A stretch of DNA of 64,000 nt from Candidatus Uhrbacteria bacterium (GTDB lineage: Bacteria > Patescibacteriota > Patescibacteriia > UBA9934 > GWF2-40-263): contig JACQSK010000007.1 in assembly GCA_016205975.1 (NCBI GenBank), positions 5,328 through 69,327 of the forward strand, read 5' to 3'. Both the position numbers and the translations under genes were made by a program. Position 1 is the stretch's first letter. Each line of letters starts with the position of its first letter. Positions 26-8,445 of the stretch are shown here, one piece after another. The notes beneath the pieces were generated by a model. The model saw only the letters and a program-made list of their open reading frames with translations. It ran no database searches and was not told where the DNA came from.

Positions 26-349
26 TCATACCTCGGGTTGTTTCAAAGCGGCCTCGATACGATCCAGCGCTTCCATGGCGCTTTGCTCTGAGGCGGCTTT
101 CGCCGTTTCGTACTTCGCCTGCGCTTTTTGGATCGCCTCGCCCAGCATCTGATTCTCGCGCGCGACCGTCTCGTGGACGTTGGTTTCCAAGATGTGCATG
201 AGTCGATCAAGCTGTTCGGGCGTCATCTCCGGCATCATCGCCACAAAGCCAGCCTTCACGTCTTCGGGCATATCGGCCGCGGTTAAAAGGAGAGCGAAAC
301 GCTCGCCGAGTTTTTTTGCTTCTTGCTCGATGTCTGGTTGTGGATCCAT
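26..349 (-). CDS. hypothetical small acidic helical protein
   Basis: ORF 26..382 trimmed to internal Met (MDPQPDIEQEAKK...); balanced composition, no family recognised. Confidence 0.4.
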   Translation of the reverse strand: MDPQPDIEQEAKKLGERFALLLTAADMPEDVKAGFVAMMPEMTPEQLDRLMHILETNVHETVARENQMLGEAIQKAQAKYETAKAASEQSAMEALDRIEAALKQPEV

Positions 350-383
350 AAGGTATGATAGTTTACAACGAGTATACCCCATT

Positions 384-1301
384 ATGGCACCAAATATCGA
401 ATACCCCTACATGCCGCCTGGGCGGTTTCTGAAGTACGCCTCGCCGGACGATCCGTTTATGGTCGCCGCGGCGCGTGCCAGGGCGGAGCAGGCGAGCGAT
501 GCCTTGTATCCGGTTGGGGCCGCGATGGTCGTGGGCGGCGCGATGGTCGCGCGCGCGGGGAACGGGTTTAACCGCGGGGCCGGGAAGGTGCATGTGTGCC
601 CGCGGATCGTTCTGGACGTTCCCAGCGGGACCGGGTATGAGCTGTGCGATCTCCACGATCCGACGGGTCATGCGGAGCGGATGCTCTTGCAGGTCGCTCG
701 GGAGGCTGGGATCGATCCAGCCGGCAGCGACGTCTATCTGTACGGCCACTGGTGGGCGTGCGAGCCCTGCTGGAGCGCGCTCATCGAAGCGGGCGTGCGG
801 GATCTCTATGTGACCGATGACGCGCACGAGCGGTTTGCGCGAGAGAAGGTGTATGGAGAGACACTCACGCCCGGCGTGAAAAGCGTCTACATCGCCGGAC
901 CGATCACCAACGTGGAAGACTTTGAGAGCCAGAAGCGTTTTTATGAAGCGCTCGGGGAGGCCGCAGAGCAGGTGGGATGTCGAAGCTGTATCCCGCATCG
1001 GGATAGCGGTGAAACCCAGTGGGCGCACGATGAGAATAAAGCGGCGGACGTGTTTGCCTGGGCGACGGGGGCGGTGCGTGACTGCGATGTCGTGGCGGCT
1101 GATGTGAGCGTGCCTTCGCTTGGGACCGGCGGGGAACTCGTCGAAGCCACGAGGGAAGGGAAGCACATCGTTCTTCTGTCCAAGAGAGGCTCGCGCGTCT
1201 CCGCATTCGTCCGAGGCAATCCCTCCGTGGTCTATCACATCGAGTATATTGACGAAGCTGATGCCGCGCGACAGCTTCGAAATGTCCTGAGGCAGCTCTA
1301 G
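384..1301 (+). CDS. dCMP/cytidine deaminase domain fused to nucleoside 2-deoxyribosyltransferase (NDT/DNPH1-like) domain
   Basis: N-terminal zinc-deaminase motifs HAE and PCxxC (HAERML ... CEPC). C-terminal VYIAGPI ... GTGGELVEA matches the N-deoxyribosyltransferase fold with its conserved Glu. Start set at Met69 of ORF 180..1301. Confidence 0.65.
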   Translation: MAPNIEYPYMPPGRFLKYASPDDPFMVAAARARAEQASDALYPVGAAMVVGGAMVARAGNGFNRGAGKVHVCPRIVLDVPSGTGYELCDLHDPTGHAERMLLQVAREAGIDPAGSDVYLYGHWWACEPCWSALIEAGVRDLYVTDDAHERFAREKVYGETLTPGVKSVYIAGPITNVEDFESQKRFYEALGEAAEQVGCRSCIPHRDSGETQWAHDENKAADVFAWATGAVRDCDVVAADVSVPSLGTGGELVEATREGKHIVLLSKRGSRVSAFVRGNPSVVYHIEYIDEADAARQLRNVLRQL

Positions 1302-2944: not shown

Positions 2945-3742
2945 TCAGGCCGCGGTGGCCTTCTTCTGGTACGCGTCGGTGCCAGGCCAGCCGAGCTCCT
3001 CGAGCGCCAGGACGCTCCGCGCCCAGGACGAGCGCACCCAGATGTGCTCGCTCATCGTGGGAACCTCTCGACCCACGTAGAGGTCGAGGCGGTCGAGCTC
3101 GAGGCCACGCAGCTCCTCGGGTCGGTCCTGCCTCTGGAGGTGGTTCACCGCGACGAGTCGCTCGTTGTTGGTCACCAGGCAGAACATGATCTCACCCTCA
3201 TGCAGGCACTGGTACTTGTCCCAGACCTGCTGAGGCGTGAGGTTCACCATTTTGGCGATGGTGGCGAGACGACACCAGCGGCGGCGCGTGCTGCGCCCGG
3301 TCGTCTCCTTGACCATGTAGGGCGTGCGACCCACGAGGCGTTCGAGAACGCCGTTCTTGATCTGGCGGGCGCCCTGGAAGAGGCTCGTGTCGGGCCACTC
3401 GTCGTAGCCATCCGTCATGCCGGAGATCGTCATGAGACCGAAGGGCTTGGTCGCCCAGCGGACGAAGATGGTCGGGTTGTGCTGGTCGCCCTGGACGGCC
3501 GTGAGGAGGTGGATCTCGTTGCCCGCCTCGCGGATGGCCTGCCGGCGCTCGAACGAGTACGGCTCGGGGTTGCCGTCCTCGTCGTAGGCGTGCGACTGAC
3601 GGTGGGGCACGGGCCAGATGTAGGTGATCAGCGCCCAGGCTCCCTCGGGGACCTCCTCGCACGCGAGCGTGGTGTCCTCGTAGATCGGCTCACGCTCGTC
3701 TTCGTAGGTGCCGCTGTGCCGGCTGATCTTGATGCGGAGCAT
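2945..3742 (-). CDS. hypothetical protein (GC3-rich ORFan)
   Basis: ORF 2945..3781 trimmed to Met14 (MLRIKISRHSGTYE...). Balanced amino-acid composition, unlike the antisense ORF 3044..3793. No family recognised. Confidence 0.5.
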   Translation of the reverse strand: MLRIKISRHSGTYEDEREPIYEDTTLACEEVPEGAWALITYIWPVPHRQSHAYDEDGNPEPYSFERRQAIREAGNEIHLLTAVQGDQHNPTIFVRWATKPFGLMTISGMTDGYDEWPDTSLFQGARQIKNGVLERLVGRTPYMVKETTGRSTRRRWCRLATIAKMVNLTPQQVWDKYQCLHEGEIMFCLVTNNERLVAVNHLQRQDRPEELRGLELDRLDLYVGREVPTMSEHIWVRSSWARSVLALEELGWPGTDAYQKKATAA

Positions 3743-3831
3743 CGTTCCTCCTTGTCCCGAGTGCCCATGTTGGGCTCTCATTCAATGGACTAAGCGAGGA
3801 TAGTCGAAAATCCTCCAACTGTCAACCTTGG

Positions 3832-3997: not shown

Positions 3998-4687
3998 TTA
4001 TAAACTGAATTGATTCTTGATCTCATCAAGCTTACCCTCGACGAGCATCTGCCGTTCGTCGTCTTTGTCGAGCTTGAACCCCTGTGAGCCGGCCTGCTGT
4101 GAGCCTGTCGAACCCATCGAACCAGATTCCGTATACTTGGCCGCCGTCATGCCGTGAAGGTTGGCTTCTTCTGGCGTGAGCGGCCGATTCAGTTCTTGGA
4201 AGATCACCTGGCACACGCGCTCACCTGGATACAGACGGATCACTTGGTCGCCGGCTTCGTTTTTCATGGGGAATATGAGATGACCCTTGTAGCCCGTATC
4301 GATGATGCCCGAGAGCGATAGGTCAATGCCGCGGCGGTTGGTCGAAGTACGCGGGAACAAGACGGCCATGAGGTGCAGCGCGTTCAACTCGATGCGTTCC
4401 AGGCTCGTGCCGATCACAAACTCGTTTGGGAGCAGTTCAAAGTATTGCCCGGGCTGAAGCTGGACTTCATCGAATTGCTCGCGATGCGCGTCCACATCGT
4501 CAATGGCGACCTTGATAGCGCGTCGGCCTTTCTCATCAACCGTCCAGTTGCGCGGGATCAGGAACTTGTATCCAAGGCGCAGGTCAATGGCGTGCGGTTG
4601 GATTTGGAACTGGTCGAGCGCGGGGGTGAATCGGAGGGCGCTTGTGGTGATGGCGGAGAGGATTTCTGGGCGTGTGAGGATGGACAT
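3998..4687 (-). CDS. dcd: dCTP deaminase / dUTPase-family protein with ~45-aa C-terminal extension
   Basis: IDLRLG ... SGIIDTGYKGHLIFPMKNEAGDQVIRLYPGERVCQVIF pattern of the Dcd/Dut family, plus an extra Ser/Gly/Lys-rich tail. Confidence 0.8.
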   Translation of the reverse strand: MSILTRPEILSAITTSALRFTPALDQFQIQPHAIDLRLGYKFLIPRNWTVDEKGRRAIKVAIDDVDAHREQFDEVQLQPGQYFELLPNEFVIGTSLERIELNALHLMAVLFPRTSTNRRGIDLSLSGIIDTGYKGHLIFPMKNEAGDQVIRLYPGERVCQVIFQELNRPLTPEEANLHGMTAAKYTESGSMGSTGSQQAGSQGFKLDKDDERQMLVEGKLDEIKNQFSL

Positions 4688-7092: not shown

Positions 7093-8445
7093 TCACCTCG
7101 GGGTGGGCGACGTGGAGCTTCGCCTTGTACTCGAGCAGGAGGCGGCCCCAGTGTGTGCGGTCGCTCTGCCGGTTGAACTGGTCCGCGAGCAGATACAGCG
7201 CCTGCCTCGCGTCCGGGTGCCAGTTGGCGGGCTGGCCTGCACGGCGGCGGGGGAACTCCCATCCTCCATGACGGCTACGCCACAGAACATCTTGAGCTTG
7301 GCCTGGGTGGCCTTGCGCGCGCGGTGCCGGAGCTTGGAGCGCTCCTCATGGCACGCGACGGCACGCTCGAGCAGGGCGGCCTGCTCCGGTCGCCTGTTCT
7401 TCGCGCACCAGGAGGCGACGCGTTGCAGGGTCTGGAACTCGCTGTTCCCCAGCTGGACGAAGCGCTTGAGTTCCTGGAACCTCGCCTCGCGCTCCAGCCG
7501 GGTGGACTCCTCGTAGAGGCTGTCCATCCGCGCCTGGTTGGGTTCGACCATGAACCGCTCGATCCCGCCGATCGCGGAGATGAGCCTTCCCGCGAGCGCG
7601 GGGCCGATGCCCGAGACATCCTCCAAGATGTGCTGCCACACCTGGGTGTTCTTCACGGCGCGGTCGAGCTCCTTGAACCGCGCGGCCTCCTCTTCCTGGA
7701 GCGCCAGGTAGATGCGGTCGTTGGCCTTGAACTCGTTGAACGCGCGTTCGATGTCGAGCTCGGCGAAGTCCTGCTCGGCGCACAGCACCTGGCCCACGAG
7801 GGCTCGGTGCAGGCGCTGTTCGCAGGCGATACGACCCTTCATGGCGTCGATGCGCAGAGCCTGGCACTCGCGCACCCAGATGATGCGCCGTGTGTTCACC
7901 GTCACCTCGTGGAAGAGGCTGGGCTTGTCGCGCGCGAGCTGCGCCAACAGCTTGGCGTCCTCGTCCTTCTCGCCGTGGCGTTCCCGCTTGAGCTCGAAGG
8001 GCGGAAGGCGCAGGACCTTGGCACTCACGCGCTCACCCTGCTTGGACAGGGCGAAGGCGAGCCGGTCTCCCGAGCCGCCGAGCGACATCCCGACGACGTC
8101 ACCGCGCTGGAGGCCGTCGAAGGTGATGGGAACCTTGGTGGCGACCTGGGTCTTGCCGTCCTGCTCGCGCAGGTGCACCTGGTTGAGCTTCTCGACGTCC
8201 TCGGTCTTCTTCACCGTACGCCACTTCACGTGACGTGGGTTGAAGTCTGCGAGGCTGTCTTCGGGCGCGATGTCACGCCAGGCGATGGGGAAGCGACCGC
8301 GCACCCAGTCGAGCTCGGCGTTGTCGTCCTCCAGCTCGTAGGTGTCCTCACGCCCGCCGTCGATGACGGTCATCTGGGTGGGACGCGCTTCTCCTTCCTT
8401 GGTCTTCTTGACCCGGTGTCGGACACCGATGAACCTCTTGTTCAC
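7093..8445 (-). CDS. IS110-family-like transposase/recombinase (RuvC/DEDD-like segment plus helix-hairpin-helix), divergent
   Basis: VVGMSLGGSGDRLAFAL resembles a RuvC/YqgF/DEDD N-terminal motif. LEDVSGIGPALAGRLISAIGGIERF closely resembles the HhH of IS110 Transposase_20 (LxxIPGIGxxTAxxLLAEIGDxxRF). The canonical Ser motif is not recognisable. The last ~60 aa are low-complexity, so a frameshift is possible. Sits in a GC-rich block between secE and gyrB. Confidence 0.4.
   Translation of the reverse strand: MNKRFIGVRHRVKKTKEGEARPTQMTVIDGGREDTYELEDDNAELDWVRGRFPIAWRDIAPEDSLADFNPRHVKWRTVKKTEDVEKLNQVHLREQDGKTQVATKVPITFDGLQRGDVVGMSLGGSGDRLAFALSKQGERVSAKVLRLPPFELKRERHGEKDEDAKLLAQLARDKPSLFHEVTVNTRRIIWVRECQALRIDAMKGRIACEQRLHRALVGQVLCAEQDFAELDIERAFNEFKANDRIYLALQEEEAARFKELDRAVKNTQVWQHILEDVSGIGPALAGRLISAIGGIERFMVEPNQARMDSLYEESTRLEREARFQELKRFVQLGNSEFQTLQRVASWCAKNRRPEQAALLERAVACHEERSKLRHRARKATQAKLKMFCGVAVMEDGSSPAAVQASPPTGTRTRGRRCICSRTSSTGRATAHTGAASCSSTRRSSTSPTPR

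Follow-up and report, generated by a model that had tools for sequence, protein, structure and literature searches.

A zinc deaminase fused to a DNPH1-like domain in a patescibacterial thymidylate operon, with a possible route to thymidylate through 5-methyl-dCMP

In human cells the nucleotide hydrolase DNPH1 (Rcl) acts after the deoxycytidine monophosphate (dCMP) deaminase DCTD on hydroxymethylated nucleotides, and the two activities of that pair are the same two that we predict for a single polypeptide, the subject of the present analysis, encoded near the start of a 64,000-nucleotide stretch of DNA—hereafter the window—from a Candidatus Uhrbacteria bacterium (GenBank assembly GCA_016205975.1, contig JACQSK010000007.1, positions 5,328 to 69,327). 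A second comparable arrangement is that of MilA/MilB and BcmA/BcmB, where a pyrimidine C5-modifying enzyme of the thymidylate-synthase (TS) fold is likewise genetically paired with a nucleotide N-glycosidase of the nucleoside 2-deoxyribosyltransferase (NDT) superfamily; those pathways, however, make free bases for antibiotics, whereas the operon of the fusion gene contains genes for dihydrofolate reductase (DHFR) and thymidylate kinase (Tmk) and lies beside ribosomal protein genes in minimal genomes. Among phages, finally, the dCMP-deaminase-family genes found beside TS homologs with Asp at position 177 (E. coli numbering) include deaminases selective for 5-methylcytosine (5mC), for which a role in making dT nucleotides from 5-methyl-dC nucleotides has been proposed (bioRxiv 10.1101/2024.12.05.627091). 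Our locus shares with such pairs (Xp12-like; mSCD-B5) a dCMP-deaminase-family gene beside an Asp177 TS homolog; but the phage genomes contain 5mC in place of C and mSCD-B5 requires triphosphates, whereas the genes considered here are chromosomal in a cellular lineage, are accompanied by those for DHFR and Tmk, and specify a deaminase that carries a DNPH1-like domain.

That the gene is a real and conserved fusion of a dCMP-type zinc deaminase with a DNPH1-like domain is, to judge by sequence comparison and a structural model, almost certain. The original prediction for this stretch had proposed a deaminase joined to an NDT/DNPH1-like domain from the motifs HAE, CEPC, VYIAGPI, and GTGGELVEA, all of which are where they had been placed (Table 1), and the architecture was borne out. 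The product is 100% identical to the "hypothetical protein HY631_01240" of NCBI, from a metagenome-assembled genome (MAG) of Candidatus Uhrbacteria. Because the homologs in the alignment begin at the same M-x-x-I-x-Y-P-Y-M-P as the fusion protein, we preferred the ATG at 384 over an upstream TTG at 180. Of the two Pfam domains that the prediction would have led one to expect, dCMP_cyt_deam_1 (PF00383) was matched on amino acids (aa) 25–143 at 33.5 bits, above its cut-off of 25, whereas Nuc_deoxyrib_tr (PF05014), on aa 168–270, fell marginally below its own (27.3 versus 28.8 bits); the C-terminal half was matched as well by Nuc_deoxyri_tr2 (PF15891, 24.9 bits).

A profile of the family, built from 91 full-length relatives—over which the residue counts given below were also made—was searched against all PDB sequences and matched Rcl/DNPH1 (E 5e-8), the S. 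mutans dCMP deaminase (E 3e-7), BcmB (E 4e-6), BlsM (E 1.6e-4), MilB (E 2e-3), and bona fide NDTs (E 0.015). The AlphaFold2 model computed from the 91-sequence alignment had a pLDDT (predicted local distance difference test) of 94.9 and a pTM (predicted template-modelling score) of 0.90, and its best 50 Foldseek matches in the PDB all belonged to the NDT superfamily; human DNPH1, MilB, BcmB, and a cyanobacterial NDT headed the list, DNPH1 (8rpt) at E 2e-7 and a target TM score of 0.68–0.75. The more than 200 clusters of homologs, together with the near-invariance of the catalytic residues in the 91 full-length relatives, place the fusion far beyond chance. An identity of the C-terminal half with LOG or DprA, which the original prediction had named as the finding that would speak against it, was rejected: neither family appeared among the Pfam matches at E<=1, in the PDB profile search at E<=0.1, or among the Foldseek top 50, and the zinc ligands and the Glu are present. 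In our own alignments, for which human DNPH1 and E. coli ThyA and Dcd served as references, the key positions were cross-checked on the PDB alignments.

By its sequence the N-terminal half belongs to the dCMP-deaminase branch of the zinc deaminases and is complete. The full deaminase motifs that had been expected were confirmed, with His96, Glu98, Cys126, and Cys129 in all 91 relatives; the expectation of a P-C-x-x-C motif, in contrast, held only for the Cys pair, the canonical Pro before the first Cys being replaced by Ala or Cys (here A-C-E-P-C). With this half alone the profile search gave the S. mutans dCMP deaminase 2hvv at E 5e-9 over aa 18–140, followed by the phage dCMP deaminase 4p9c (2e-5) and human DCTD (1.4e-4). 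The alignment with 2hvv ran through the Cys/His-rich insert that both proteins have before the HAE, and we infer that the four invariant residues of that insert (His70, Cys72, Cys88, and His91) form a second, structural metal site. The similarity to the canonical dCMP deaminases (the ComEB-type 2hvv, human DCTD, T4 Cd) thus comprises the fold, the zinc site of HAE plus CxxC, the GxNG(F/Y) motif, and the insert. It is nevertheless remote, the score of the fusion protein against NCBIfam ComEB being 13.9 bits for a cut-off of 219, and the family has a signature of its own, consisting of a conserved N-terminal extension (I/V)xYPY(M/L)P—YPYMP in the fusion protein—that precedes the deaminase domain, of HVCPR, and of GHWWACEPCW. 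Unlike the canonical enzymes, moreover, this type of deaminase is always accompanied by an Asp177 TS.

For the C-terminal half the closest solved relatives, by sequence profile and by fold alike, are human and rat DNPH1, with MilB and BcmB among the top matches in both respects; sequence and model thus point to a fold of the DNPH1/MilB type, closer to the nucleotide hydrolases DNPH1, MilB, and BcmB than to the base-exchanging NDTs. The motifs VY(F/I)xG, PSLG(V/T)G(Y/G)E, and SA(M/F)(I/V)RG are shared with DNPH1 and carry the Tyr, the Glu nucleophile, and both phosphate-binding Ser residues. Within DNPH1, Tyr24 belongs to the catalytic triad, Glu104 is the nucleophile, Ser98 and—from the partner subunit—Ser128' bind the phosphate, His56 contacts the base O2, and Glu55 activates the water (PMC10603095). 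At the corresponding positions of the family, residue 169 is Tyr in 85 and Phe in 6 of the relatives, Ser245 is kept in 89, Glu251—the conserved Glu that had been foreseen—in 90, and residue 273 is Ser in 79 and Thr in 7; residue 205 is His in 72 and Phe in 17, and Pro204 is present in 89, the last two positions lying in a loop whose alignment to DNPH1 is of low confidence. The choice of Tyr or Phe at the first of these sites separates 2'-deoxy-specific enzymes from the CMP-specific MilB and BcmB, as the F17Y switch of MilB demonstrates (PMC4081090); the fusion family has the Tyr, whereas MilB and BcmB have the Phe of the ribo-specific enzymes. MilB, for its part, recognizes the 5-hydroxymethyl group by Arg23, which residue is Thr175 in the fusion protein, and on that ground we ruled out a recognition of the MilB type, although one through the backbone, as in DNPH1, may apply.

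From DNPH1 the C-terminal half differs in its identity of only 22–26%, its fusion to a deaminase, its PF05014 score just below the cut-off, and the substitutions of Asp80 by Ala227, of Glu55 by Pro204, and of Arg30 by Thr175; because the residues at the positions of Asp80 and, by the low-confidence loop alignment, of Glu55 differ, this half cannot be filed as a DNPH1 ortholog. The residue at position 227 varies in the family (Asp in 25, Ala in 23, Ser in 16, Thr in 10, and Gly in 10), and since both the stand-alone homologs and the most distant clade have the Asp, a complete Tyr-Asp-Glu triad appears to be the ancestral state. In 43 sequences with Ala, Ser, Thr, or Cys at position 227, preceded by Trp226, residues 206–207 are Arg-Asp, whereas with Asp227 residue 207 is usually His; this covariation may reflect a relocated carboxylate, Asp207 compensating for Ala227, or it could merely mark two clades.

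The gene neighborhood adds a context in deoxynucleotide metabolism. Three contigs encoding an identical fusion protein extend the window upstream (the window begins at position 5217 of contig locus L002, the overlap being identical), and on them the order of the genes is thyA (+), folA (+), three minus-strand genes, the fusion gene (+), two or three variable genes (-), a gene of the DCD fold (-), and then rplA, rplK, nusG, and secE. The insert between folA and the fusion gene (L002 1401–5565), which consists of a gene for a protein of 991–1256 aa without Pfam domains and of two for proteins of about 106 aa, all on the minus strand, is restricted to the subclade of the window. When reference proteins were searched with tblastn against 87 loci and 80 species loci were compared, thyA, folA, and the fusion gene proved in most of the latter to be immediate neighbors on one strand, preceded closely by tmk and followed by the DCD-fold gene and rplA. 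A distant clade, at 29–33% identity, has thyA, folA, dcd, the fusion gene, and tmk, in that order, on a single strand, and two proteins (P0078 and P0127) are triple fusions of DHFR, deaminase, and NDT-like domain. The adjacency to thyA and folA, the synteny with tmk, and the triple fusions assign the fusion gene to a thymidylate operon, and a role of its product in thymidylate synthesis is, from these comparisons, very probable.

The ThyA homolog of that operon keeps the catalytic Cys146 along with Arg166, Asp169, Tyr94, and Glu58; yet in the PDB alignments an Asp stands opposite the E. coli Asn177 (p-h-D versus p-f-N) and a Pro opposite His147. Asp177 was present in all 74 loci with a TS homolog, of which 68 had Pro147, 5 had Tyr147, and 1 was partial; that survey covered the contig loci around the genes considered here, namely those of the fusion-deaminase family plus one cluster with a stand-alone NDT-like gene (L094/L095, described below), and in the loci without a match the contig ended before thyA. 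Position 177 sets the pyrimidine specificity, so that the substitution N177D turns thymidylate synthase into a dCMP methylase producing 5-methyl-dCMP, and no other residues are as closely associated with the cytosine-modifying TS homologs as those at positions 177 and 147 (PMC8670742). Because the operon ThyA homolog is of the Asp177 type in 74 of 74 loci, we take 5-methyl-dCMP as the likely substrate of the deaminase, and dTMP as its product; and because DHFR is adjacent, and sometimes fused, the methylation would be reductive and yield dihydrofolate, in keeping with established TS chemistry, instead of being a hydroxymethylation. The Asp177 homolog would accordingly methylate dCMP to 5-methyl-dCMP, DHFR would recycle the dihydrofolate, the deaminase half would convert 5-methyl-dCMP (possibly the triphosphate) to dTMP, and Tmk would phosphorylate dTMP to dTDP, by which sequence thymidylate would be made without passing through dUMP. 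By analogy with the mutant and phage enzymes, we lean, if only slightly, towards such a route, with methylation before deamination.

What the C-terminal half might contribute is suggested by its losses and by its relatives elsewhere. A shortened protein is encoded at the orthologous locus in about 35 of the 80 species, with lengths clustering at 236–238, 207, 170–176, and 243–288 aa; the deaminase motifs of these proteins are intact and the PSLGxGxE is gone, the last helix (...RQLRNVLRQL) being kept in most of the forms. Since it was lost repeatedly at the same locus while the deaminase motifs stayed, the catalytic function of the C-terminal half appears to be accessory. A word-indexed search with this half alone returned only fragments of fusions, whereas an exhaustive search of representatives revealed a stand-alone NDT-like subfamily of about 150 aa, with 33–40% identity and the same set of motifs including an Asp at the position of DNPH1 Asp80, which comprises at least 610 clusters in cyanobacteria, Firmicutes, and Parcubacteria; NCBI often calls its members "nucleoside 2-deoxyribosyltransferase" and in several cases, wrongly, "XRE family transcriptional regulator". 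The NDT-like domain also occurs fused to thymidylate kinase (P0192), to a DCD-fold domain (P0230), and, in the reverse order with the NDT-like part first, to a deaminase of the GHWWAC type (P0213), the contigs of all three being too short for a gene context (1.2–1.4 kb for P0213 and P0192). Of six stand-alone genes whose surroundings were read, four were clustered with TS-fold and DCD-fold genes, three of these four with a dCMP deaminase gene as well, and two were uninformative. The three clusters with the deaminase are cyanobacterial (L091, L093, and L096) and combine the NDT-like gene with a very divergent TS::PterinBD-DUF4346 (Asn177, Leu147), a ComEB-type deaminase, and a DCD-fold gene; the L094/L095 cluster, from metagenome contigs, contains a class II ribonucleotide reductase, a short-chain dehydrogenase/reductase, a 173-aa DCD-fold gene, the NDT-like gene, a TS with Asp177 and Pro147, a 342-aa TS-fold paralog, and a second DCD-fold gene, with no deaminase of the cytidine deaminase fold within 5 kb. 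By these fusions and contexts the NDT-like subfamily is functionally tied to enzymes of deoxypyrimidine nucleotides, as in MilA/MilB and BcmA/BcmB.

On those grounds we propose that the C-terminal half would bind a 2'-deoxypyrimidine 5'-monophosphate and cleave its glycosidic bond through a covalent deoxyribose-5-phosphate intermediate on Glu251, thereby removing off-pathway dUMP (from unmethylated dCMP) or 5-hydroxymethyl-dUMP as free base and deoxyribose 5-phosphate; with a TS of the Asp177 type, nucleotides of the dUMP kind would be dead ends. To us an active clean-up N-glycosidase in this half is conceivable but somewhat doubtful, and the explanation as a whole—a two-domain enzyme of a 5-methyl-dCMP thymidylate operon, with the C-terminal half in charge of clean-up—is one that we put forward tentatively, as the best we have and with slightly more reserve than confidence.

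Several points weigh against that explanation. The cytosine specificity that Asp177 predicts is taken by analogy with mutants and phage enzymes, and the one 5mC-selective phage deaminase characterized in this respect, mSCD-B5, acts on triphosphates, not on monophosphates (10.1101/2024.12.05.627091). Ala227 replaces the general acid Asp80 of DNPH1, D80 mutants of which have served, according to the titles of PDB entries, to trap substrate; the near-invariant Pro204 sits, with the low confidence of that loop alignment, at the water-activating Glu55; and Thr175 stands in place of the Arg that recognizes 5-hydroxymethyl in MilB; so that the C-terminal half may be slow, inactive, or given to a different chemistry. 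Its frequent loss shows that the pathway works without it. The cyanobacterial clusters, in turn, combine an ordinary deaminase of the ComEB type with a TS-like protein that has Asn177, and the NDT-like function is for that reason not tied to the Asp177 route.

The same substitutions of the general acid and of the water-activating Glu would favor a C-terminal half that is not catalytic at all, being instead a nucleotide-binding regulatory module—sensing deoxynucleoside monophosphates (dNMPs) and controlling the deaminase—or a structural or oligomerization module, in either case descended from an enzyme of the DNPH1 kind. The canonical dCMP deaminases are under allosteric control by dCTP and dTTP, the domain has more than once decayed to a stub in which the C-terminal helix is kept, and the pTM of the model indicates a fixed packing of the two domains; all of this would suit such a module. 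The retention of Glu251, Ser245, and Tyr169 at the frequencies given above would not, nor would the gain of Arg206-Asp207 with the loss of Asp227, which suggests a relocated carboxylate rather than decay; and that members of the same subfamily occur on their own in comparable clusters, or joined to other enzymes, is what one would rather expect of an enzyme. We regard a non-catalytic role as unlikely, though deserving of attention. An enzyme with a different outcome would be a transferase, moving deoxyribose 5-phosphate or deoxyribose between bases in order to balance the dNMP pools: catalysis in the NDT superfamily proceeds by way of a covalent glycosyl-Glu intermediate, from which either outcome may follow, the best Pfam match is Nuc_deoxyrib_tr, and the Glu that activates water in DNPH1 (PMC10603095) is, by the loop alignment, the near-invariant Pro here. 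Both sequence and fold, however, are nearer to DNPH1, BcmB, BlsM, and MilB than to the bona fide NDTs (profile E 5e-8 versus 0.015 for the extremes), the pair of phosphate-binding Ser residues is present, and the thymidylate context calls for no base exchange. We know, furthermore, of no dNMP transglycosylase, and a transferase seems to us very improbable.

The original prediction itself had envisaged that deamination of dC or dCMP would be coupled with exchange or release of the base in an activity of salvage or of pool editing; in other words, an ordinary dCMP deaminase would make dUMP from which the C-terminal half would release or exchange the base, and the protein would serve salvage, catabolism, or pool editing in a nucleotide-scavenging bacterium of the candidate phyla radiation (CPR). 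CPR bacteria do depend on salvage, the domain families and the catalytic motifs are present, and the best solved relatives of the N-terminal half are dCMP deaminases; human DNPH1, in addition, is reported to act slowly on dUMP (PMC10483697). The proposal, though, does not fit the context, since the gene sits in a thymidylate operon with thyA, folA, and tmk and not in a catabolic one. With a TS of the Asp177 type in every one of the 74 loci, dUMP would be no useful product, so that a dedicated dCMP-to-dUMP enzyme makes little sense; and if the TS did use dUMP, its destruction would oppose the synthesis of dTMP. The C-terminal half, moreover, is dispensable in many orthologs, which lack its motifs, and the deaminase never; and base exchange or release accords poorly with the nearness of that half to hydrolases instead of NDTs and with the Ala227 at the position of Asp80. 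A salvage or pool-editing enzyme thus appears improbable, and the 5-methyl-dCMP operon remains the reading that we prefer.

The relatives of the fusion protein, found in more than 200 clusters and, in a scan with one genome per species, in 171 genomes, go under the names "hypothetical", "deaminase", "deoxycytidylate deaminase", or "2'-deoxynucleoside 5'-phosphate N-hydrolase"; public databases have contained the fusion since the CPR genomes of the 2015 era, though only under hypothetical or incomplete names. Nearly all of the informatively named records belong to Uhrbacteria, Parcubacteria, or Patescibacteria, along with Moraniibacteriota, Falkowbacteria, and Gracilibacteria. Many third-party-annotation (TPA) MAG records titled "uncultured Gammaproteobacteria bacterium" show an operon and a synteny of the Patescibacteria/CPR type, and those titles look like placeholders. 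A phage origin of the fusion gene was set aside: PHROG gave no match for it, the matches in BFVD were to single-domain proteins, either NDT-like or deaminase and never both, and tblastn against phages matched the deaminase half weakly and in only three Xanthomonas phages (Langgrundblatt1/2 and Pfeifenkraut; ON189043.1 43751–44068), at 41–42% over aa 71–145 (75 aa). The two regions read of one of these Xanthomonas phage genomes had no TS gene. An anti-phage defence of the dCTP-deaminase or DcdV-like kind was likewise discarded, PADLOC giving no match for the fusion gene or its five neighbors and the context being one of housekeeping genes (ribosomal proteins, nusG, secE, gyrB). In the literature we found no paper on a deaminase–deoxyribosyltransferase fusion, on DUF4346, or on thymidylate genes of this kind in CPR bacteria, and no description of a link of stand-alone NDT-like proteins to TS clusters or of an Asp177 TS in a cellular thymidylate operon.

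Of the conserved neighbors, the DCD-fold gene had been described as a dCTP-deaminase gene convergent to the fusion gene; a gene of that fold does lie on the opposite strand, but at a distance of 2.7 kb, separated from the fusion gene by three minus-strand genes, and it lacks the catalytic Glu. Its score against NCBIfam dCTP_deam is 84.4 bits for a cut-off of 92.8, and in the alignments with 4xjc and 2qxx the Pro of its IFPMKN falls on the catalytic Glu of the dCTP deaminases (TLExxN; (T/V)LE motif), as it does in the CPR relatives. Presumably it also lacks the second Asp of the I-D-S-D motif of dUTPases, with E. coli Dut taken as the reference. From these residues the protein is probably not a deaminase and may be a (d)NTP pyrophosphatase. 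The stretch between the fusion gene and the DCD-fold gene varies among strains with an identical fusion protein (240+234 versus 234+234 aa) as well as among species, and looks like a variable island. At the other side of the fusion gene, the longest reading of the open reading frame (ORF) at 26–382 would start 1 nucleotide from the fusion ATG, whereas the called start at 349 leaves a divergent intergenic region of 34 nucleotides. Farther downstream, between the nusG/secE block and gyrB, a 450-aa ORF (window 7093–8445, minus strand) has a faint match to an IS110-type transposase (E 0.009), and relatives carry other genes in its place.

Table 1. Position of the fusion gene, its motifs, and its neighbors (window coordinates, except where locus L002 is given; counts over the 91 relatives)
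Feature	Position	Strand	Remarks
Fusion gene, complete ORF	384..1301	+	ATG start; 305 aa and stop
Zinc deaminase domain, dCMP-deaminase branch, ~aa 18–160	435..863	+	PF00383; nearest PDB relative 2hvv
H70-x-C72 ... C88-x-x-H91, insert before HAE	591..656	+	Four residues invariant, 91/91
H96-A97-E98	669..677	+	Zinc ligand (His, 91/91) and catalytic residue (Glu, 91/91)
C126-E-P-C129, inside GHWWACEPCW	759..770	+	Two Cys zinc ligands; both in 91/91
DNPH1-like domain, NDT superfamily, aa 165–305	876..1298	+	Pfam, PDB profile, Foldseek
V-Y169-I-A-G-P-I174	885..905	+	Tyr169 = DNPH1 Tyr24 = MilB Phe17; Ile174 = DNPH1 Ile29
Thr175, next after VYIAGPI			Position of DNPH1 Arg30 / MilB Arg23; T in 76/91, S in 11/91
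P204-H205-R206-D207, small helix after strand 2	993..1004	+	AlphaFold2 helix 204–207; His205 = DNPH1 His56, Pro204 = DNPH1 Glu55
Ala227	1062..1064	+	Position of DNPH1 general acid Asp80 / MilB Asp78, from alignments
P-S245-L-G-T-G-G-E251	1113..1136	+	Ser245 = DNPH1 Ser98; Glu251 = DNPH1 Glu104
GTGGELVEA, aa 247–255	1122..1148	+	
S273-A-F-V-R-G	1200..1217	+	Ser273 = DNPH1 Ser128'
thyA homolog (Asp177), same genome	L002 62-901	+	With folA, 3.8–5.2 kb upstream of window position 1
folA (DHFR), same genome	L002 904-1404	+	
sm2, small protein	26..382	-	Last of the three inserted minus-strand genes; first ORF of the window
Two tandem paralogs with weak helix-turn-helix matches and an unknown 278-aa gene	1431-2153, 2150-2854, 2945-3781	-	Between the fusion and DCD-fold genes
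DCD-fold gene, conserved operon neighbor	3998..4687	-	Pfam DCD, 88.7 bits

The protein thus combines domains of known kinds, and the more novel implication is that of a cellular synthesis of thymidylate through 5-methyl-dCMP. A still wider picture—in which the patescibacterial lineage would make thymidylate without dUMP, dUMP would be a dead end both useless and dangerous, the C-terminal half would dispose of dUMP-type nucleotides, the Glu-less DCD-fold neighbor would help as a pyrophosphatase, and the NDT-like relatives, whether stand-alone or fused to Tmk or DCD, would form a hitherto unrecognized pool-sanitizing branch of the NDT superfamily, associated with non-canonical TS-fold enzymes in several phyla—is a speculation that we consider improbable in its entirety. 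If the 5-methyl-dCMP route should hold, a highly conserved step in the making of DNA precursors would run in reversed order in a large group of ultra-small bacteria, an order for which 5mC phages have until now been the sole proposed case; these genomes would have to be reannotated where they now read "thymidylate synthase", "dCMP deaminase", and "dCTP deaminase"; and the lineage would offer compact deaminases of 5-methyl-dC nucleotides, along with DNPH1-like enzymes, for biotechnology. The fusion protein would then also be a bacterial counterpart, in one polypeptide, of the human DCTD–DNPH1 sanitizing pair. On a conservative reading, the fusion still ties to deoxypyrimidine metabolism a poorly understood branch of the NDT superfamily, members of which are fused as well to Tmk, to a DCD-fold domain, and to a deaminase in the reverse order.

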